A DNA stretch of 13,814 bases from positions 1-13,814 of IMG/VR virus record IMGVR_UViG_2778261465_000003. One strand, written 5' to 3'. The notes under the pieces are model-generated. The model did no database searches, was not told where the DNA came from, and worked only from the letters and a program-made list of their open reading frames with translations. Positions 1-10,032 of this stretch are shown in pieces (the first letter of the stretch is position 1; every line of letters begins with the position of its first letter). The translations under genes and the position numbers were made by a program. Source of the DNA: a virus. Lineage: Duplodnaviria; Heunggongvirae; Uroviricota; Caudoviricetes.

Positions 1-1074
1 TCATTTGTCGATTTCAATTTTGTCCCATTCCCGTCCACGGCTGTCCCTATACCGCGCCGCCATTGAATCTGATTTATGCCCGAGAAGACGTTGAGCAAAC
101 TTATCGCCAATCTGGTTCCGGTATAGCCTCGCTGACAGGCTACGCAGTTCATGGAATGTTGGCGGGTTTCCATCAAATGAGAGGCCAGATGCATTTCTCG
201 CCTTTGTAAAATACTTTGATACTGTTTTCGGGGAAAGCGGATCGTGATGCTTTGATGCGATTATAGTTTCACTGCTGCTGGCCTCCCTGCATTTCTGTAG
301 TGTATCAGCCAATGAGATATTGAGCGCGTCAATCGTTAGCGTTAGCGGAATGGCGAGTTTAGCCCCTGTTTTACTCTGTTTAATGTGAAGATGGTTGTCG
401 TTTATGTCTGACCATTTCATTCTGCACAAATCGCCGACTCTCTGCCCTGTAACGACGGCCAAATCCATCGCCAGCCTTAGCCAGATAGGGAGAGGTTCGG
501 CTGCATGGTAAATCTCGACATACTCATTAGCTGTCAGCCTTGAGCGCCTTACTTCTGACTTTGCTGTACGGGTTGCTGTTACCGGATTCGTTGCCACATG
601 CCCCTCGGCTATTGCTTCACGAAAAACGTCAACAAGGGTTGACCTGATTAATTTTGCGGAAGCTGCTTTACCTTCTGCTACGTAGGTGTTTAGCATTGCT
701 GCCACTTCTTTCGTTGATATGTCAGTGAGCGGTTTGTCCGGCAATTTTCTTCGGATTGCCCTGATTTTGCTGGCGTAGTCGAGTAGAGTTTTCGGCCTGA
801 TCCCCCTTTCGGTGAGGATTGTTTCATATCGGTCAAGCCACACATGAAGAGTGATTGCGTCACCGCCTTTAATTCTGTCTATTAGTGATTTGCGTCCGCT
901 GTCTGAGAGTAATTCAATATTGGCCTGTATTGCTTCAGTGATTGCTATCCTCCTGTCTCGGCCTAAACCAAACTCTTTACCCGTCCTTGGGTCCCTGTAG
1001 CAGTAATATCCATTGTTTCTTATATAAAGGTTAGGGGGTAAATCCCGGCGCTCATGACTTCGCCTTCTTCCCAT
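1..1074 (-). CDS. int: Phage integrase, tyrosine recombinase (lambda Int-like)
   Basis: 357-aa ORF, colinear with lambda Int as recalled: N-terminal arm-binding region MGRRRSHERRDLPPNLYIRNNGYYCYRDPRTGKEF and C-terminal catalytic region (HELRSLSARLY, LLGHKSD, ARYRD). Overlaps upstream xis by 23 nt as in lambda. Confidence 0.95.
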   Translation of the reverse strand: MGRRRSHERRDLPPNLYIRNNGYYCYRDPRTGKEFGLGRDRRIAITEAIQANIELLSDSGRKSLIDRIKGGDAITLHVWLDRYETILTERGIRPKTLLDYASKIRAIRRKLPDKPLTDISTKEVAAMLNTYVAEGKAASAKLIRSTLVDVFREAIAEGHVATNPVTATRTAKSEVRRSRLTANEYVEIYHAAEPLPIWLRLAMDLAVVTGQRVGDLCRMKWSDINDNHLHIKQSKTGAKLAIPLTLTIDALNISLADTLQKCREASSSETIIASKHHDPLSPKTVSKYFTKARNASGLSFDGNPPTFHELRSLSARLYRNQIGDKFAQRLLGHKSDSMAARYRDSRGREWDKIEIDK

Positions 1075-1270
1075 TTCTGATCCTCTTCAAAAGGCTACCT
1101 GTTACTGGTCGATTTAAGTCAACCTTTACCGCTGATTCGTGGAACAGATACTCTCTTCCATCCTTAACCGGAGGAGGGAATATCCTGCATTCGCGCACCC
1201 ATCGACGAACTGTTTCAAGGCTTCTTGGGCGTCGCTGGCGAGCGTTCCACTCCTGAAGTGTCAAGTACAT
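1052..1270 (-). CDS. xis: Excisionase (lambda Xis-like)
   Basis: Internal Met of track ORF 1052..1360 gives a 72-aa protein MYLTLQEWNARQRRPRSLETVRRWVRECRIFPPPVKDGREYLFHESAVKVDLNRPVTG, near-identical to lambda Xis as recalled. The 30 codons upstream in the track ORF are not Xis-like. Confidence 0.9.
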   Translation of the reverse strand: MYLTLQEWNARQRRPRSLETVRRWVRECRIFPPPVKDGREYLFHESAVKVDLNRPVTGSLLKRIRNGKKAKS

Positions 1271-1387
1271 CGCAAAGTCTCCGCAATTACACGCAAGAAA
1301 AAGCCGCATTGATGCGGCGATGGTAGGTCTGGATATCATTGAGCAATGAACAGGCCTCATCGAGTGTGAGGCGGTGTTATTTCATGG

Positions 1388-1648
1388 TTAGTCCTTGCGT
1401 AGCTCGCTGATTCTTCTGTAAGTCTCTGGTGCTTTGTTTCCGTGTATCTTCATTTCAGACTTCAACAGAGCAACGAGGGAATCCCATTCGTTGAGGATTC
1501 CTTTGAATGCCGGAACGCGCTTTGCAACCTTGTTGAATGAATCTCTGATTTCTGGAATCTGCTCAACAAGTGCAACGCATCGTCTGAAATCGGCTGCGTC
1601 ATGGGGAGCGCCGAAGTGATGACCATAGATATTCTTTTCAGTCCACAT
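1388..1648 (-). CDS. Hypothetical protein (86 aa), early-left accessory gene
   Basis: Track ORF with protein-like composition, immediately upstream of xis on the same strand. The overlapping alternative frame 1462..1758 begins inside a terminator hairpin. No family recognised. Confidence 0.5.
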   Translation of the reverse strand: MWTEKNIYGHHFGAPHDAADFRRCVALVEQIPEIRDSFNKVAKRVPAFKGILNEWDSLVALLKSEMKIHGNKAPETYRRISELRKD

Positions 1649-1744
1649 GCGATTGAGGCAAGAGTTGCGCTACTGATGCCGACATCGCCAGTCGATTGCC
1701 ATTTCAAAACCTTCATAGCCAAATCTGACATTTCTTGTCTCCAA

Positions 1745-1766
1745 TAAAAAACCGCCATCAGGCGGC
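1745..1766 (-). terminator. Intrinsic terminator (minus strand)
   Basis: Minus-strand reading GCCGCC-TGAT-GGCGGT (6-bp stem including one G.U) followed by six U; overlaps the stop codon of the 55-aa ORF. Confidence 0.5.
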
Positions 1767-1925
1767 TTGGTGTTCTTTCAGTTCTTCAATTCGAATATTG
1801 GTTACGTCTGCATGTGCTATCTGCGCCCATAGCATCCAGTGGTCATAGCAGTCATTGATGTTCTCTGCTTCGATAACTCTGTTGAATGGTTCTCCATTCC
1901 ATTCACCTGTGACTCGGAAGTGCAT
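1758..1925 (-). CDS. Small hypothetical protein (55 aa)
   Basis: Below the track threshold; translated by hand as MHFRVTGEWNGEPFNRVIEAENINDCYDHWMLWAQIAHADVTNIRIEELKEHQAA. GGAG Shine-Dalgarno 7 nt upstream of ATG; flanked by terminator hairpins on both sides. Confidence 0.35.
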   Translation of the reverse strand: MHFRVTGEWNGEPFNRVIEAENINDCYDHWMLWAQIAHADVTNIRIEELKEHQAA

Positions 1926-1936
1926 TTATCATCTCC

Positions 1937-1963
1937 ATAAAACAAAACTCGCCGTAGCGAGTT
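1937..1963 (-). terminator. Intrinsic terminator (minus strand) downstream of the DUF2513-like gene
   Basis: Perfect 7-bp stem AACTCGC / GCGAGTT with loop CGTA, followed on the minus strand by UUGUUUUAU. Confidence 0.45.
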
Positions 1964-2008
1964 CAGATATAATTTCCACCAAAGGCAGTAGTTGCTTGAT
2001 GCTAAGAA

Positions 2009-2437
2009 TTATTCAATATCTATTCCTGTAATATCTTTTATCTTTTTCCTTGCAAAGCCTTTTGCTAGTGATTTTGAAACACTCATAAGTGTACTAATTC
2101 CCTCATCCTTAAAGTTTGTTTTTATAGCTTGCCAGACATCCTTTTGACGTAAGTCAGCAATAAAATCATGCCCTCTTGCTGTCAACCTCAGTGGTACTTC
2201 GATCCAACTATATCCAACACCTTCCCCTAACGCTTTGGACATTATATGACCGAACCCAGGTTTTCCATCAACCCTGACTATTAATTCGTAGTCACATAAT
2301 AATCGCATATGGAAAATAAAATCTTGGTCATATCTATTAAAACCATTATCCTCTAGTTCACTAAGCATCGTGTCAGGGCCACGAGTTTTTTCGAATGCGA
2401 TAAGTAGATCTTTTAGATATTGCTGGTCTAATTTCAT
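2009..2437 (-). CDS. Hypothetical protein, possibly DUF2513-like (142 aa), AT-rich moron
   Basis: Track ORF with markedly lower GC than its neighbours (roughly mid-30s percent by eye). N-terminus MKLDQQYLKDLLIAFEK...YDQDFIFHMRLLCDYELIV resembles the DUF2513 pattern as recalled; weak assignment. Confidence 0.55.
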   Translation of the reverse strand: MKLDQQYLKDLLIAFEKTRGPDTMLSELEDNGFNRYDQDFIFHMRLLCDYELIVRVDGKPGFGHIMSKALGEGVGYSWIEVPLRLTARGHDFIADLRQKDVWQAIKTNFKDEGISTLMSVSKSLAKGFARKKIKDITGIDIE

Positions 2438-2465
2438 TGCCGCCTCCGTGACATGTCACAGAGAT

Positions 2466-2804
2466 TTATATCATTAATTTTGTTTCGTGCCAGCCTTTGG
2501 TCACCCAGCATTGTGAGTCACCATTACACGGGCATGAATTAACAGGAACTCTCTCGCCGCACTTACCGCAACGTTTTCTGCTGATCGATTTTATACGCCA
2601 GCGCACACGTGCATCATCCTGGCGGCTCAGTAACGCGATGTACTCACCAAACTCGCAAGGCGCACGCCTGAAGCGACGCGTGGCACAGTTACGCTCCAGC
2701 ATTTCAATTTCCTGAGCATCAAGTACAAGCTCCAGCTTACGCATACCGGATGATGCTTGCTTGGCTCTCTGATCGGCTTTGTGCTCTGTTGCTGATTTAG
2801 CCAT
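2466..2804 (-). CDS. Hypothetical Cys-rich protein (112 aa) with putative C-terminal zinc ribbon
   Basis: Track ORF; AGGAAA Shine-Dalgarno about 9 nt upstream of ATG at 2804. C-terminal CGKCGERVPVNSCPCNGDSQC (CxxC...CxC) and an N-terminal region with a possible ribbon-helix-helix-like beta strand (KLELVL). Confidence 0.5.
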   Translation of the reverse strand: MAKSATEHKADQRAKQASSGMRKLELVLDAQEIEMLERNCATRRFRRAPCEFGEYIALLSRQDDARVRWRIKSISRKRCGKCGERVPVNSCPCNGDSQCWVTKGWHETKLMI

Positions 2805-2848
2805 TCTGCTTTTCCTGCATCAGGAGAAAGACAATCATGGCGGCGCGG

Positions 2849-2944
2849 ATACTTCCGGTATCTTTTTACGCGATATTCCCCTTCAATGGCACATACAAAA
2901 AGAGAGCCATCCACAGGAGTGATTGAGGAATCGACAACCAGCAA
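2849..2944 (-). pseudogene. Relic of an S24 peptidase / repressor (UmuD, LexA, cI-type) C-terminal domain
   Basis: First about 32 codons of track ORF 2627..2944 (TTG start, stop immediately upstream) read LLVVDSSITPVDGSLFVCAIEGEYRVKRYRKY, resembling the UmuD core ([29 protein letters not shown]) and the lambda cI C-terminal domain as recalled. The rest of that ORF is out-of-frame overlap with the neighbouring gene. Confidence 0.4.
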
Positions 2945-2997
2945 CGCTTAATTATCTATAGTGTCGTATTTGCTTCATAAAATATGGCGAATAACAC

Positions 2998-3033
2998 AAA
3001 GCCCGCAGCAGCTCATTGTGCGGGCTTTTCTTA
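2998..3033. terminator. GC-rich hairpin, candidate bidirectional intrinsic terminator
   Basis: Perfect 10-bp inverted repeat AAAGCCCGCA / TGCGGGCTTT with an 11-nt loop, followed by TTTTCTT on the plus strand and a U-rich tract on the minus strand; sits between two minus-strand genes. Confidence 0.5.
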
Positions 3034-3097
3034 TACCTACTTCCTAGAGATAATTCTATGGAGGCATTAAATCAATACTGTCATTGGTAATATCATA

Positions 3098-3712
3098 TTA
3101 TCTAAAAGTCTTTCCACTTTTAACATCTAGGTATATTCTGTTCGACAACGTCATTCCTCCGCAATATGTGAAATAGATGTTTTCACCCTTATTGCTTGAT
3201 GCCATCCACCCTCCGATTTCCTTAAAATCGCTTTCCGTGCAGACCCCTTCATTTATTAACTTCCTAGCTGCCGAAGAAAACTCTTTTTTGTATATACGGT
3301 AGTCATCAGATCCTTTGATTAAAGTATCATCTCCGCTCGCATTTTCAGCAGGATCTGATGGCCTTTCACTGCTAAGATCACTAAGTTTAACCCATTCTGA
3401 AAACTTGCCATTAACGATTCCATTTTTTCTTGTGCAGGATTTATTACCTTCTTTAATATATTCGCTTTCCCCTCCAACACATGAGGCTGAATATGGCTCA
3501 GTTATACGAACCCATTCACCTTTTTTTTCTAGAAAATCTACGCCTTCCCTGAAAAATAGTTTCCCAGCCACTCCACATTTACTTGAAGGGCAGGTATGTC
3601 TTTCCGTTCGATCAACAACAACCCATAGTTTTGATTCATTTTTTGCCATTGCCGATGGTATTTGAGATGAGACAATTAACGTAAGCCCTAAAATTAGTAT
3701 TGATTTTTTCAT
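3098..3712 (-). CDS. Secreted Cys-rich protein of unknown function (204 aa, Sec signal peptide), AT-rich moron
   Basis: N-terminus MKKSILILGLTLIVSSQIPSAMA has a basic n-region, hydrophobic core and AxA cleavage motif. Six Cys in the mature part, consistent with periplasmic disulfides. Low GC; terminator hairpin downstream. Confidence 0.7.
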   Translation of the reverse strand: MKKSILILGLTLIVSSQIPSAMAKNESKLWVVVDRTERHTCPSSKCGVAGKLFFREGVDFLEKKGEWVRITEPYSASCVGGESEYIKEGNKSCTRKNGIVNGKFSEWVKLSDLSSERPSDPAENASGDDTLIKGSDDYRIYKKEFSSAARKLINEGVCTESDFKEIGGWMASSNKGENIYFTYCGGMTLSNRIYLDVKSGKTFR

Positions 3713-4010
3713 TGTAATTTCCTTTTACTTTTTACAAAGCGTTTAATCATGGCTGATTATCTCTAAGCGTAGTAACAGCCTTGTGCGAAACATGTTACCA
3801 AATCGCCATTTCAGTGTATCCGCAGTTAGGCTGCCACTTCAAGGATTCCTAATTACATGGTACGTAAGCGTAAAATCCCGTTGGTTGGCTGGTAATAACT
3901 CTGATCAAATCTCCCTTGTCTTTTGCTCTTACGTATGCAGCTCTTGTGTATTCAACCCAGGCCTCCAGTTCAGCAATACGCTTACTTCCATCCGAGATAA
4001 CACCTTCTAC

Positions 4011-4262
4011 TCACGCTGCTCGTTGAGTTTTGATTTTTGCTGTCTCCAGCTCAACACGCAGTTTCCCCACCGTTAGCGCAATATCCTCGTTCTCCTGGTC
4101 GCGGCGTTTGATGTATTGCTGGTTTCTTTCCCGTTCATCCAGCAGTGTCAGCACAATCGATGGTGTTACCAGCTCATGGAAAAGGTCCGCGTCAAATCCC
4201 CAGTTGTCATGCATTGCCTGCTCTGCCGCTTCACGCAGTGCCTGAGAGTGAATTACGCTCAC
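4011..4262 (-). CDS. Hypothetical protein (83 aa, GTG start), possibly truncated by an in-frame TGA
   Basis: Track ORF overlapping the upstream TraR-like gene by 4 nt (translational coupling). The same frame stays open for about 53 codons beyond the TGA, and a codon-matched antisense ORF (3783..4076) spans the junction. Confidence 0.45.
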   Translation of the reverse strand: MSVIHSQALREAAEQAMHDNWGFDADLFHELVTPSIVLTLLDERERNQQYIKRRDQENEDIALTVGKLRVELETAKIKTQRAA

Positions 4263-4480
4263 TTCGAACCTCTCTGTTTACTGATAAGCTCCAGATCTTC
4301 CTGGCAACTTGCACAAGTCCGACAACCCTGAACGGCCAGGCGTCTTCGCTCATCTATGGGATCGCCACACTCACAACAATGAGTGGCAGATACAGCCTGG
4401 TGGTTCAGGCGGCGCATTTTTATTGCTGTGTTGCGCTGTAATTCTTCAATTTCTGATGCTGAATCAATGATGTCTGCCAT
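4259..4480 (-). CDS. TraR/DksA family C4-type zinc-finger protein (73 aa)
   Basis: Motif CCECGDPIDERRRLAVQGCRTCASCQ (CxxC-x17-CxxC) near the C-terminus, typical of phage TraR/DksA-like proteins. Confidence 0.75.
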   Translation of the reverse strand: MADIIDSASEIEELQRNTAIKMRRLNHQAVSATHCCECGDPIDERRRLAVQGCRTCASCQEDLELISKQRGSK

Positions 4481-4534
4481 CTTCCATTAATCCCTGAATT
4501 GTTGGTTAATACGCTTGAGGATGAATGCGAACAA

Positions 4535-4556
4535 TAAAAAAGGAGCCTGTAGCTCC
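4535..4556 (-). terminator. Intrinsic terminator (minus strand)
   Basis: Minus-strand stem GGAGC / GCTCC with a 5-nt loop, followed by six U; 23 nt downstream of the gene ending at 4579. Confidence 0.5.
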
Positions 4557-4578
4557 CTGATGATTTTGCTTTTCATGT

Positions 4579-4794
4579 TCACCGTTCCTTAAAGACGCCG
4601 TTTAACATGCCGATCGCCAGGCTTAAATGAGTCGGTGTGAATCCCATCAGCGTTACCGTTTCGCGGTGCTTCTTTAGTACGCTACGGCAAATGTCATCGA
4701 CGTTTTTATCCGGAAACTGCTGTCTGGCTTTTTTGATTTCAGAATTAGCCTGACGGGCAATACTGCGAAGGGCGTTTTCCTGCTGATGTGTCAT
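4579..4794 (-). CDS. Hypothetical protein (71 aa from internal ATG; track ORF extends to 4860)
   Basis: Track ORF 4579..4860. The first 22 codons (MHFSGSGLHILCAYACRHGTCS) have no Shine-Dalgarno and odd composition, so the start at MTHQQENALRSIARQ... is preferred. Confidence 0.45.
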   Translation of the reverse strand: MTHQQENALRSIARQANSEIKKARQQFPDKNVDDICRSVLKKHRETVTLMGFTPTHLSLAIGMLNGVFKER

Positions 4795-4870
4795 TGAACA
4801 AGTCCCATGTCGGCAAGCATAAGCACACAGAATATGAAGCCCGCTGCCAGAAAAATGCATTCAGTGGTTG

Positions 4871-5062
4871 TCATACCTGGTCTCTCTCATCTGCTTCTGC
4901 TTTCGCCACCATCATTTCCAGCTTTTGTGAAAGGGATGCGGCTAACGTATGAAATTCTTCGTCTGTTTCTACTGGTATTGGCACAAACCTGACTCCAATT
5001 TGAGCGAGGCTATGTGCCATCTCAATGCTCGTTCTTAACTCAACAGGAGATGCTTTGTGCAT
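4871..5062 (-). CDS. Hypothetical protein (63 aa)
   Basis: Track ORF with a strong GGGGAG Shine-Dalgarno 4-5 nt upstream of ATG at 5062; acidic C-terminus. Confidence 0.5.
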   Translation of the reverse strand: MHKASPVELRTSIEMAHSLAQIGVRFVPIPVETDEEFHTLAASLSQKLEMMVAKAEADERDQV

Positions 5063-5176
5063 ACAGCTCCCCGTTTATTATTTATCTCCTCAGCCAGCCG
5101 CTGTGCTTTCAGGGGATTTCGGGTAACAGAAAGGCCGGGAAATACCCAGCCTCGCTTTGTAACGGAGTAGACGAAA

Positions 5177-5533
5177 GTGATCGCGCCTAACGGGGGCGGC
5201 GATTGGCAGGTTAAACCTGAACGTCGCAAGGCAGAACGAATCGACTACGAATCCTTCCTGAACGCCTACAACACCGAAGTCGGTGACAGACTTCCACACG
5301 CTGTTGCGGTCAACGAGAAACGAAAACGCCGCCTGAAGAAAATCATTCCGCAACTGAAAACGCCAAACGTGGACGGTTTCAGAGCGTATGTCAGGGCGTT
5401 TGTGCATCAGGCCAAGCCGTTTTACTTCGGAGACAACGACACGGGCTGGACGGCCGATTTTGATTACCTGCTGAGGGATGACTCGTTAACGGGGGTAACC
5501 GTACAGGTTTTACCTCGTCACGTGGCTTTCTGA
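5177..5533 (+). CDS. Possible C-terminal remnant of a phage replication-module protein (118 aa, GTG start)
   Basis: Protein-like ORF (...[25 protein letters not shown]) that begins directly after an in-frame stop with only GTG available. Tentative resemblance to the conserved C-terminal domain of phage replication proteins. The antisense ORFs 5090..5407 and 5035..5229 look like artefacts. Confidence 0.35.
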
Positions 5534-5885
5534 TGGCTGAAAGACGCTTTACCAGCTCGTCCATCGCCTGACTCGATGTATCGATGGTTCCGTTCTGAAT
5601 TGGTTCACGCATTTCATCCATGATTTCCAGCACCAGGCGGCGGTGATAGTTATCCGCGACCATTCCGGCATATCCCTTCAGGTTTGCGGCACTCGGGCAG
5701 TTTTTGCTGGTCATCAGGATTGACGTGAAATGCTCCTCTCCGCACGCCTCGGCAACCATCAGCGCGTCGATTAGGTTTCTGTTTCTCGCCTGCTTGCGGA
5801 TAACCTCGAAGGCTTTCCGGTAGAGCGGAATTGAAAACGCTTCCGGCTCCAGCGTTGCCAGAACGTCGCTGGCGGTTGGTGTTAA
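5500..5885 (-). pseudogene. DnaB-like replicative helicase N-terminal domain fragment, inverted relative to the nin/late genes
   Basis: Minus-strand translation ...[73 protein letters not shown]... is colinear with the E. coli DnaB N-terminal domain as recalled (...FYTRPHRHIF...LSKNTPSAANISAYADIVRERAVVREMI...). No ATPase domain is present; similarity is lost at about 5885. Confidence 0.55.
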
Positions 5886-7587: not shown

Positions 7588-7662
7588 GGGTCAGTCGTAT
7601 AAAGGTCATTACGGAAGGCTGTTAACCTTCTTATCGTGGTTCGAGTCCACGCTGTCCCGCCA
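7588..7662 (+). tRNA. tRNA-Asn (anticodon GUU)-like, one acceptor-stem mismatch
   Basis: Hand-folded cloverleaf: acceptor GGGTCAG / CTGTCCC (T.T at pair 4-69), D-loop AAAGGTCA, anticodon stem GAAGG / CCTTC, loop CTGTTAA (anticodon GTT), T-arm CGTGG-TTCGAGT-CCACG, discriminator G, encoded CCA. Anticodon and T loops match E. coli tRNA-Asn as recalled. Confidence 0.6.
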
Positions 7663-7667
7663 AATAT

Positions 7668-7743
7668 GCTGGTTTAGCTCCAATGGTAGAGCGGTCGCCT
7701 TGTAAGCGAATGGGTAGCGGTTCAAGTCCGTTAACCAGCACCA
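7668..7743 (+). tRNA. tRNA-Thr (anticodon UGU)-like
   Basis: Hand-folded cloverleaf: perfect 7-bp acceptor GCTGGTT / AACCAGC, D-arm GCTC-CAATGGTA-GAGC, anticodon stem GTCGC / GCGAA (27-43 mismatch), loop CTTGTAA (anticodon TGT), T-arm AGCGG-TTCAAGT-CCGTT, discriminator A, encoded CCA. Confidence 0.7.
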
Positions 7744-9147: not shown

Positions 9148-9177
9148 TTGGTCAATACATCGAACAGATCAGATAAT
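9148..9177 (+). promoter_or_regulatory. Candidate sigma70 promoter for the protease gene
   Basis: TTGGTC, 18-bp spacer, GATAAT in the AT-rich spacer after Rz1, about 55 nt upstream of the protease ATG. Confidence 0.35.
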
Positions 9178-9231
9178 TCTTATGTGATTGATGCTATATT
9201 TATCCCCTATTTAAACATGGGAGTTACGGAT

Positions 9232-10032
9232 ATGTCTGTCAGTCAAGATATTTATAAGTCTACACTTAGAGTTGAAAGTGATACTCCAGAGGGAACCTCG
9301 GTAGGAACTGCTTTCTGGTTTTGCTTTGTTATGGAAGGTGGTGAAGATATTGTTCCACTCTTGGTAACTAATAAGCATGTTGTTAACGGGGCAACAGAAG
9401 TTAGACTACGTCTAAACATTACCGACAGCGCAAATCCTGAGATAAAATTTTATAACCTAACAATTTCAGAGGGGGCAAATGCGTTCATTATGCACCCTGA
9501 TGATAATGTTGATATATGCATATTGCCTATCGCTGGATTGCTGAATGAGATGGAGAAAAGTGGCATTAGCCCAGAACTCTTCTTTTTCACAGATCGTCAG
9601 ATGCGTGGTAACAATTACATTACTCCTGTCGAAGATGTTTACATGACAGGATATCCAAATGGATTATGGGATTCTGTAAACAATAGGCCTGTTACCAGGA
9701 AAGGCATCACAGCATCATCACCTATGGAAAACTGGAAGGGTAAGCCTGAATTCCTCATTGATATGGCTTGTTTCGGTGGTTCTAGCGGTTCTCCCGTTTA
9801 TATAATGAACCAAGGCTCATATGCTACTAATGATGGTATTGCTATGGGGGAGAGATTAATTTTCCTTGGGTTGTTGTATGCAGGGCCAGTAACGAATGTT
9901 AGCGGGAATATTGAAATTATTGACGTACCAACAGTCGCTACACCAGTTGTGCGTTCTGAAATTACAATGAATCTCGGATTTGTTATTAAAGCAGAGAAGC
10001 TAAATGACTTTAAGCCTCTCTTGGGGATTTAA
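9232..10032 (+). CDS. Cytoplasmic trypsin-like serine protease (chymotrypsin fold, Trypsin_2-like), AT-rich accessory gene
   Basis: 266 aa from ATG 9232 (GGGAG Shine-Dalgarno 8 nt upstream; track ORF starts at a TTG at 9148). Catalytic triad in canonical order and context: His in LLVTNKHVV, Asp in DDNVDICILPIAG, Ser in GGSSGSPVY. No signal peptide or transmembrane segment. GC clearly lower than the flanking phage genes. Confidence 0.75.
   Translation: MSVSQDIYKSTLRVESDTPEGTSVGTAFWFCFVMEGGEDIVPLLVTNKHVVNGATEVRLRLNITDSANPEIKFYNLTISEGANAFIMHPDDNVDICILPIAGLLNEMEKSGISPELFFFTDRQMRGNNYITPVEDVYMTGYPNGLWDSVNNRPVTRKGITASSPMENWKGKPEFLIDMACFGGSSGSPVYIMNQGSYATNDGIAMGERLIFLGLLYAGPVTNVSGNIEIIDVPTVATPVVRSEITMNLGFVIKAEKLNDFKPLLGI

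Follow-up and report, generated by a model that had tools for sequence, protein, structure and literature searches.

SH3b domains dock proteins onto the stem peptides of peptidoglycan in endolysins and NlpC/P60 peptidases, and the same mode of attachment has been proposed for TagV. Peptidoglycan is guarded from exogenous muramidases by Ivy, PliC/MliC, PliI, PliG and T4 Spackle, small stand-alone proteins that are periplasmic or lipoprotein-anchored and patchily distributed in Proteobacteria. Phage morons, for example lambda bor and lom or HK97 gp15, are independent units of promoter, open reading frame (ORF) and terminator that deviate in composition and lie between conserved phage genes. Here we report on an AT-rich gene at positions 3098 to 3712 of a 13,814-nucleotide stretch of virus DNA (IMG/VR record IMGVR_UViG_2778261465_000003; hereafter the window), which represents the left arm and the start of the late genes of an Escherichia coli lambdoid prophage. 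The gene encodes a predicted exported protein with an SH3b domain. A described counterpart in architecture, TagV of Serratia marcescens, is a 166-amino-acid outer-membrane lipoprotein and type VI secretion system (T6SS) accessory factor, encoded upstream of tssJ in the T6SS cluster and proposed to bind peptidoglycan (PMC7614798).

The evidence makes it very likely that the product is a Sec-exported protein of two domains with three putative disulfides, held under purifying selection and encoded by a horizontally mobile, stand-alone unit. The most likely role is that of an envelope accessory protein in the periplasm, docked on peptidoglycan and possibly guarding the wall; we put it forward tentatively and at somewhat less than even confidence, a grading that strikes a compromise between a well-supported anatomy and an inferred function. 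The gene and its cassette comprise the following features.

3098 to 3712, minus strand: gene for the exported protein with SH3b and C-terminal domains, 204 amino acids, ATG start, stop codon at 3098-3100.
3724-3720, minus strand: Shine–Dalgarno sequence AAGGA, read from the sequence, 8 nt ahead of the ATG.
3644 to 3712, minus strand: Sec signal peptide (signal peptidase I type), residues 1-23, identified by sequence inspection and hydrophobicity, with predicted cleavage between AMA and K, after A23.
3377 to 3631, minus strand: predicted SH3b domain, residues ~28-112.
3101 to 3334, minus strand: predicted C-terminal alpha+beta domain, residues ~127-204, in which three helices precede a three-stranded sheet.
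2990 to 3028, minus strand: terminator-like hairpin and U-rich tail, which could act in both directions.
3713 to 3880, minus strand: non-coding AT-rich upstream region of ~170 nt.
2948 to 3880, unstranded: AT-rich cassette made up of terminator, ORF, Shine–Dalgarno sequence and upstream non-coding region, ~930 bp, GC content ~0.375.

The ORF is no chance reading frame because it has 130 homologues at E<=1e-3 amongst the 5.8 billion proteins searched, 748 cluster representatives at E<=1e-3 in an exhaustive HMMER search (140 of them at E<=1e-30), and a ratio of nonsynonymous to synonymous substitution rates (dN/dS) of 0.075 between the E. coli copy and that of E. fergusonii (dS 0.75, dN 0.056). 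This ratio indicates strong purifying selection on the gene. The selection signal sits in the minus-strand frame, and an antisense ORF at 3315-3665 on the plus strand is for this reason taken to be spurious. The protein matches PHROG 8310, a family of unknown function, over its full length (E 1.8e-136); it shares 60-69% identity with homologues from Pseudomonas and Aeromonas and ~45-50% with those from Alphaproteobacteria. In an alignment of 30 sequences, whose numbering runs one lower than that of the full-length protein since the query lacks Met1, 38 columns including all six cysteines are invariant, and they hold across Gamma- and Alphaproteobacteria. The ORF has a GC content of 0.380 (0.298 at third codon positions) compared to 0.469 for the remainder of the window and 0.49-0.50 for the adjacent genes. 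Downstream, 70 nt past the stop codon, a hairpin with a stem at 3028-2998 (AAAGCCCGCA...UGCGGGCUUU, -18.0 kcal/mol) is trailed on the gene strand by UUUGUGUUAUU and represents a terminator at the level of sequence prediction; a terminator can likewise be read from it on the plus strand, the only strand on which the consensus scanner called it, with a shorter stem. A search against Rfam detected no RNA family inside the cassette.

The N-terminus reads MKK, SILILGLTLIV and SSQIPSAMA ahead of the lysine, and thereby combines a charged n-region, a hydrophobic h-region (Kyte–Doolittle mean of 2.8 for the 11-mer SILILGLTLIV) and small residues at positions -3 and -1 in accordance with the AxA rule for Sec substrates of signal peptidase I. 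The module formed by the two domains was located in 171 relatives, 161 of which (~94%) have a hydrophobic N-terminus: 64 carry signals of the signal peptidase I type, 33 a lipobox and 64 a longer membrane-anchored N-terminus, and the 10 others are mostly truncated fragments. Judged by these N-termini, the module is extracytoplasmic across the whole family. The occurrence of soluble, lipoprotein and anchored variants parallels the PliC/MliC pair of lysozyme inhibitors. All six cysteines of the window protein (residues 41, 46, 78, 93, 158 and 184 in full-length numbering) fall in the mature part. Across 265 family proteins they are lost only in pairs, Cys41 together with Cys46 and Cys78 together with Cys93, and Cys158 and Cys184 are retained in every protein that possesses the C-terminal domain. 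This pattern fits, and points to, three intradomain disulfides that would form in the periplasm.

The 204-amino-acid ORF, the Sec signal peptide with its AMA cleavage site, the six cysteines of the mature part, the low GC content and the downstream terminator hairpin had all been noted in a preliminary description of this DNA, and each of these observations is borne out here; the interpretation then placed on them is supported in part, as discussed below, and the functions then suggested (superinfection exclusion, an enzyme inhibitor or a fitness factor) are conjectural.

Some relatives are longer; what precedes the module in them is a cytoplasmic zinc ribbon joined to a transmembrane helix, or a coiled-coil extension, or a set of ankyrin repeats. 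Long members (P0127, P0128, P0145, P0153, P0193, P0204, P0206 and P0225) possess an extra conserved, cysteine-containing N-terminal region with a motif approximating ...GY..dY.FEe.GFF..ekH.FG.LTCY..., followed by a coiled coil and then by the module of SH3b and C-terminal domain. One member has an N-terminal HIRAN domain and another ankyrin repeats (P0160 and P0123), an odd arrangement for a module located outside the cytoplasm.

Structure prediction, to which the preliminary description had pointed as a way forward, yielded a confident two-domain model when AlphaFold2 was run with the family alignment (predicted local distance difference test score, pLDDT, of 90.5; predicted template modelling score of 0.75). 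The linker between the domains also has a pLDDT >90, and the two domains are thus predicted to form one compact unit. We compared the full model with PDB and BFVD, and the C-terminal domain with PDB. The full model contains the SH3-like small beta-barrel fold, and its matches comprise the SH3b domain of Bacillus anthracis (9ovi, 10.1), the NlpC/P60 dipeptidyl-peptidase VI (3pvq, 8.9), the endolysin of phage phiSM101 (4krt, 8.6) and the SH3b domain of Staphylococcus lysostaphin (7.1), followed by many other cell-wall-binding modules. Its peculiarities are a hairpin bearing Cys41 and Cys46 and a ~35-residue insertion (~70-105) bearing Cys78 and Cys93. In profile searches SH3_3 matches 38 of 40 scanned sequences at E<=1 (39 full-length relatives and the C-terminal fragment of the window protein; best E 5.9e-8) and SH3_16 (PF18348) matches 12; for several relatives a PF08239 annotation had already been computed. 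The tryptophan canonical for the SH3b ligand site, W67 (GEWVRI; consensus GxWxR[IV]), is invariant in the 30 aligned sequences; PMC7614798 cites this residue as important in other SH3b domains. On the strength of the model, the N-terminal half is an SH3b domain of the cell-wall-binding type.

The C-terminal domain, in which Cys158, Cys184 and an SDD motif (135-137) are invariant, could be assigned to no family and has no structural relative in PDB. A profile search with this domain alone retrieved fragments and two single-domain proteins, in both of which the domain stands alone behind a membrane anchor, and no new architecture with annotated domains. Neither the full model nor the C-terminal domain matched an immunity fold or a lysozyme-inhibitor fold (Ivy, PliC-MliC, PliI or PliG). 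Profile matches in PDB to de novo designed TIM barrels (sTIM11 and others, E ~1e-7 to 1e-5) were rejected as spurious because they are summed over four identical designed repeats of ~7 bits each with individual E >10. The preliminary description had been unable to place the protein in a known family. This stands insofar as the protein lies outside every characterised functional family, but not for its N-terminal half, whose structure places the protein in the SH3b superfamily. Amongst characterised periplasmic proteins with housekeeping roles, no homologue was found.

The gene occurs in 134 of 5426 complete E. coli genomes. Two E. coli genomes (NZ_AP027713.1 and NZ_OY754443.1) contain an IS1 element inside the 1-kb region homologous to window positions 2900-3900, where the two pieces of the match lie ~780 bp further apart and where the former genome has two annotations of 'hypothetical protein'; the gene may be disrupted in both. 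A scan of one genome per species produced 76 loci in Gamma- and Alphaproteobacteria, Burkholderiales, Acidobacteriota, Campylobacterota and Vampirovibrionales, all of which are diderms. The settings vary widely. In an Aeromonas prophage the relative lies between a Q-like antiterminator and the holin gene; in five Pseudomonas loci it directly follows a ~490-amino-acid tyrosine integrase, forming integrase islets; in Citrobacter braakii it resides on a 5.3-kb ColRNAI plasmid; a P. veronii plasmid has two copies within a region resembling an integrative and conjugative element (ICE); and the alphaproteobacterial relatives occupy unrelated chromosomal settings. The islet of Pseudomonas monsensis (L003 1156-5971) is inserted beside two tandem S-type pyocin/immunity gene sets (families Pyocin_S, DUF6572 and Colicin_Pyocin). 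The GC content of the gene often falls below that of its flanks, as in Halomonas (0.456 vs 0.68).

The E. coli prophage left arm, complete with the gene, is also present at >=99.8% identity on large IncA, IncFIB/IncHI1A and other plasmids of Klebsiella, Enterobacter, Citrobacter and E. coli, the ORF itself being 99.8-100% identical at the DNA level. Its order on these plasmids is int, xis, DUF2513, the SH3b gene, TraR, DUF1382 and DUF1317, joined to remnants of Rz, trkG and tail-fibre-assembly genes, and in C. freundii (IncA, L085) and E. coli (IncFIB/IncHI1A, L086) it adjoins IS5, IS26, Tn5403 and arsenic-resistance genes. Clustering of neighbours over 76+ loci identified no conserved partner, the Pseudomonas integrase being the only recurrent one, and the neighbours in Pseudomonas, Aeromonas and Citrobacter are uninformative on function; recurrent ABC ATPase, histidine kinase, GGDEF, resolvase and transposase neighbours were set aside as generic or mobile-element noise. 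The protein therefore appears to act alone. The family is chiefly a stand-alone gene of diderm bacteria, sporadic in occurrence and spreading horizontally, and not a phage-specific factor.

How might such a protein benefit its carrier? We suppose that the SH3b domain would dock the protein onto peptidoglycan stem peptides and that the conserved C-terminal domain would then bind or block a factor acting on the wall, preferably one of the muralytic enzymes that arrive from outside, for example phage tail lysins, T6SS amidases or muramidases, or lysozymes. The wall of the carrier cell would be protected, to the advantage of the host of the mobile element. The full chain through to the block of an incoming enzyme is possible but distinctly tentative, whereas its first step, docking, is probable, although we infer it from the predicted fold alone. 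The family is confined to diderms, and this suits a target that they have in common, such as peptidoglycan of the meso-diaminopimelate type, more than it suits a host-specific receptor. Of all envelope components only peptidoglycan is common to every host phylum, which would explain the unusual conservation of the sequence. The variety of elements that carry the gene as cargo, namely the early-left region of a lambdoid prophage, the Aeromonas prophage, integrase islets, a phage-plasmid, a ColRNAI plasmid and the ICE-like region, is in keeping with such a benefit.

The explanation that competes best, rather unlikely in our estimation, holds that the docked protein tethers, recruits or regulates the cell's own envelope machinery or peptidoglycan enzymes, with a general effect on fitness; it would then resemble TagV aiding T6SS firing, or the adaptors and regulators of endogenous hydrolases. 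The SH3b fold and the TagV precedent (PMC7614798) speak for it, as do the many alphaproteobacterial chromosomal copies outside obvious mobile elements (for example L007) and the zinc-ribbon–transmembrane, coiled-coil and ankyrin variants, which resemble parts of larger assemblies; the very high conservation, too, would suit a conserved cellular partner. However, none of the 76 loci discloses a conserved neighbour or operon partner, and the window contains no T6SS or cell-wall synthesis genes nearby. The patchy distribution, exemplified by the presence of the gene in just 134 of the 5426 E. coli genomes, and the often deviant GC content moreover suggest an accessory and not a core role.

Should the C-terminal domain be catalytic, the protein would be a small enzyme directed by its SH3b domain to peptidoglycan or another envelope polymer. 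The structure matches lend this some plausibility, for in most of the characterised proteins amongst them SH3b is attached to a catalytic domain, and the C-terminal domain offers the conserved polar residues S135, D136, D137, S172 and Y180. We consider it improbable nonetheless: the domain has merely ~80 residues, no conserved histidine and a sole conserved cysteine pair that looks structural, it matches no catalytic family in Pfam, and it also exists as a membrane-anchored stand-alone domain.

Receptor masking in the manner of Cor or Llp is highly improbable. A protein of this kind, a superinfection-exclusion factor, would attach to an outer-membrane receptor on its periplasmic side, or to a component of the entry route in the inner membrane, and so prevent adsorption or DNA entry of related phages. 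The location of the gene in a lambdoid accessory region, the predicted periplasmic localisation and the lipoprotein variants in the family speak in its favour. It is disfavoured because conservation crosses phyla: identities are 45-69% from E. coli to Alphaproteobacteria, and further members occur in Acidobacteriota, Vampirovibrionales and Campylobacterota, which have no phage receptors in common. Furthermore, a single sequenced phage has the gene, and searches of PADLOC and Pfam exhibit no likeness to known exclusion proteins. That the intact gene is silent cargo, unexpressed or inconsequential in E. coli and a mere passenger of the prophage remnants, is scarcely credible in view of its dN/dS of 0.075 over a dS of 0.75, the six cysteines and 38 alignment columns invariant across classes, and its repeated independent capture by different element types, even though no promoter rises above background, the window prophage is defective, IS1 has entered the region in two genomes, and H-NS commonly silences AT-rich DNA in this species.

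Several observations weigh against the role of a peptidoglycan-docked wall guard. SH3b domains are able to bind other ligands too. Taken alone, the window protein attains 16.2 bits against Pfam SH3_3 (PF08239), below the gathering score of 27 (E 0.012, residues 40-72), and an NCBIfam search with it gave no match. Family members are named 'hypothetical' or 'SH3 domain-containing' throughout the databases, and no defence, exclusion or immunity profile of PADLOC-DB matched (0 families at E<=1). By DNA and tblastn searches the gene is carried by 1 of 50,697 phage records, phage Chlobot, a near-absence from sequenced phages that would be unexpected of a dedicated superinfection-exclusion gene. Expression in the window prophage is likewise in doubt. 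The best sigma-70-like candidate upstream of the ORF (TTGAAG at 3842-3837, an 18-nt spacer and TACACT at 3818-3813) has a position weight matrix score of 8.6, which sits within the background of equal-sized pieces of the window (median 7.7, 90th percentile 9.6), so that a promoter is not demonstrated; on the minus strand, a consensus scan returned no passing site. The pL, N and cI functions are lost from the window prophage as well, and together with the missing promoter this renders expression of the gene uncertain. The preliminary description had credited the gene with an upstream region of its own: the ~170 nt of non-coding AT-rich DNA are there, but no promoter in them exceeds background.

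The borders of the cassette, 2947 and 3881, were set by the ends of homology to other elements, and the cassette is flanked on both sides by gene remnants.

2844 to 2947, minus strand: fragment from within a humD/umuD-like (S24) gene, directly adjoining the cassette, with 84% nucleotide identity to the interior of humD on a P1-like plasmid locus (L087).
3881 to 4262, minus strand: gene remnants on the other flank.
3881-3959, minus strand: 3' end of a hypothetical gene known from the P1-like plasmid.
4011-4262, minus strand: frameshifted ead/Ea22-like fragment.

RefSeq lists the humD fragment as an incomplete 'DNA repair protein', and the fused ORF that contains it has no Pfam match. The same slot is filled by ASCH/DUF4752 genes in another lambdoid prophage (L088), and on the P1-like E. 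coli plasmid (L087 2844-4700) an unrelated AT-rich spacer of 800 bp separates the same flanking genes. On an E. fergusonii phage-plasmid (L089 1999-3524) a homologue with 89% amino acid identity directly follows hot-humD. This recurrent association with humD of P1-like phage-plasmids suggests that the cassette came to the lambdoid phage from a phage-plasmid.

The surrounding prophage is defective, and two further features define it.

1-1074, minus strand: integrase, with the excisionase next to it.
5496-5885: internal piece of a phage DnaB-like helicase gene, within 694 bp of replacement DNA.

Bases 1-5189 of the window are 99.96% identical to the torS-adjacent prophage of E. coli WAT. Compared to that prophage (L001 14290-22863), ~8.6 kb are missing at the window junction 5190-5883 and are replaced by 694 bp of different DNA. 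The missing stretch holds exo, bet, gam, kil, cIII, ral, cI, cro, cII, O, P, ren and ninB and runs on into the 5' part of ninG, and its loss leaves the window prophage without an immunity and replication region. The junction was found in no complete E. coli genome of the collection. Three other features of the window deserve mention. The DUF2513 gene (2009-2437, minus strand), an AT-rich accessory gene of the int-proximal region, has the lowest GC content in the window (0.361) and travels together with the SH3b gene on plasmid-borne prophage remnants. Genes for tRNA-Asn(GTT) and tRNA-Thr(TGT) lie at 7588-7743 on the plus strand, flanked by the genes for the Q antiterminator and the holin. Lastly, a 294-amino-acid ORF with a Trypsin_2 peptidase domain (9148-10032, plus strand, GC content 0.395), situated directly past the lysis genes (S21-type holin, phage lysozyme and Rz-like) and ahead of the small terminase, is a second moron candidate.

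In itself a prophage accessory gene of unassigned role is an ordinary kind of finding; what raises this one are the domain assignment, the orphan C-terminal domain and the breadth, conservation and mobility of the family, on which literature searches by accession, PHROG identifier and keywords found no paper. Regardless of function, the label 'exported SH3b-domain protein' can be put to use in annotation, and the C-terminal 80 residues, with their invariant cysteine pair and conserved SDD motif, constitute a candidate new domain family. We also entertain, as an unlikely proposal, a new and widely mobile class of cell-wall guards in which SH3b parks a hitherto undescribed, disulfide-locked inhibitor domain on peptidoglycan and thereby neutralises incoming muralytic enzymes; that such defence or exclusion at the peptidoglycan layer is common to prophages, phage-plasmids, ICEs and small plasmids of several diderm phyla is, to us, just as speculative. 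If true, very different mobile elements would be trading an unannotated envelope-protection module across bacterial phyla, the few periplasmic factors of exclusion and immunity would be joined by one that acts at the level of peptidoglycan, and several hundred clusters of 'hypothetical' proteins would gain a name.

Set against known systems, the cassette is similar to phage morons in several respects: its composition deviates from that of the surrounding phage genes (cassette 0.375 and ORF 0.380 vs 0.469), it has a predicted terminator of its own, it sits between remnants in a variable early-left accessory slot that related elements fill differently, and its product is predicted to be located in the envelope. 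Unlike morons its promoter is not demonstrable and the gene family is overwhelmingly non-phage, and the designation as a moron in the preliminary description is thus upheld in layout alone. The lysozyme inhibitors and T4 Spackle provide a working analogy only. No cognate effector, as for T6SS or toxin immunity proteins, emerged as a recurrent neighbour over the 76 loci; an orphan immunity gene is possible.

Compared to the SH3b cell-wall-binding domains of endolysins, lysostaphin and the NlpC/P60 enzymes (YkfC, dipeptidyl-peptidase VI), the window protein has no attached catalytic domain, is predicted to be periplasmic in diderms, and features two extra putative disulfides and the ~35-residue insertion. 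The comparison with TagV (SMDB11_2251) concerns architecture only and is drawn from its published description (PMC7614798). The C-terminal domain of TagV consists of ~27 residues in three short strands, whereas that of the window protein has 80 residues and an alpha+beta fold; the window protein has a predicted signal peptidase I site and no lipobox, its neighbours are prophage genes, and the annotated recurrent neighbour families of the SH3b gene include no T6SS component. What it has in common with TagV is a periplasm-facing arrangement in which an SH3b-like domain is followed by a small C-terminal domain, disulfide-locked in TagV (PMC7614798) and putatively so here.

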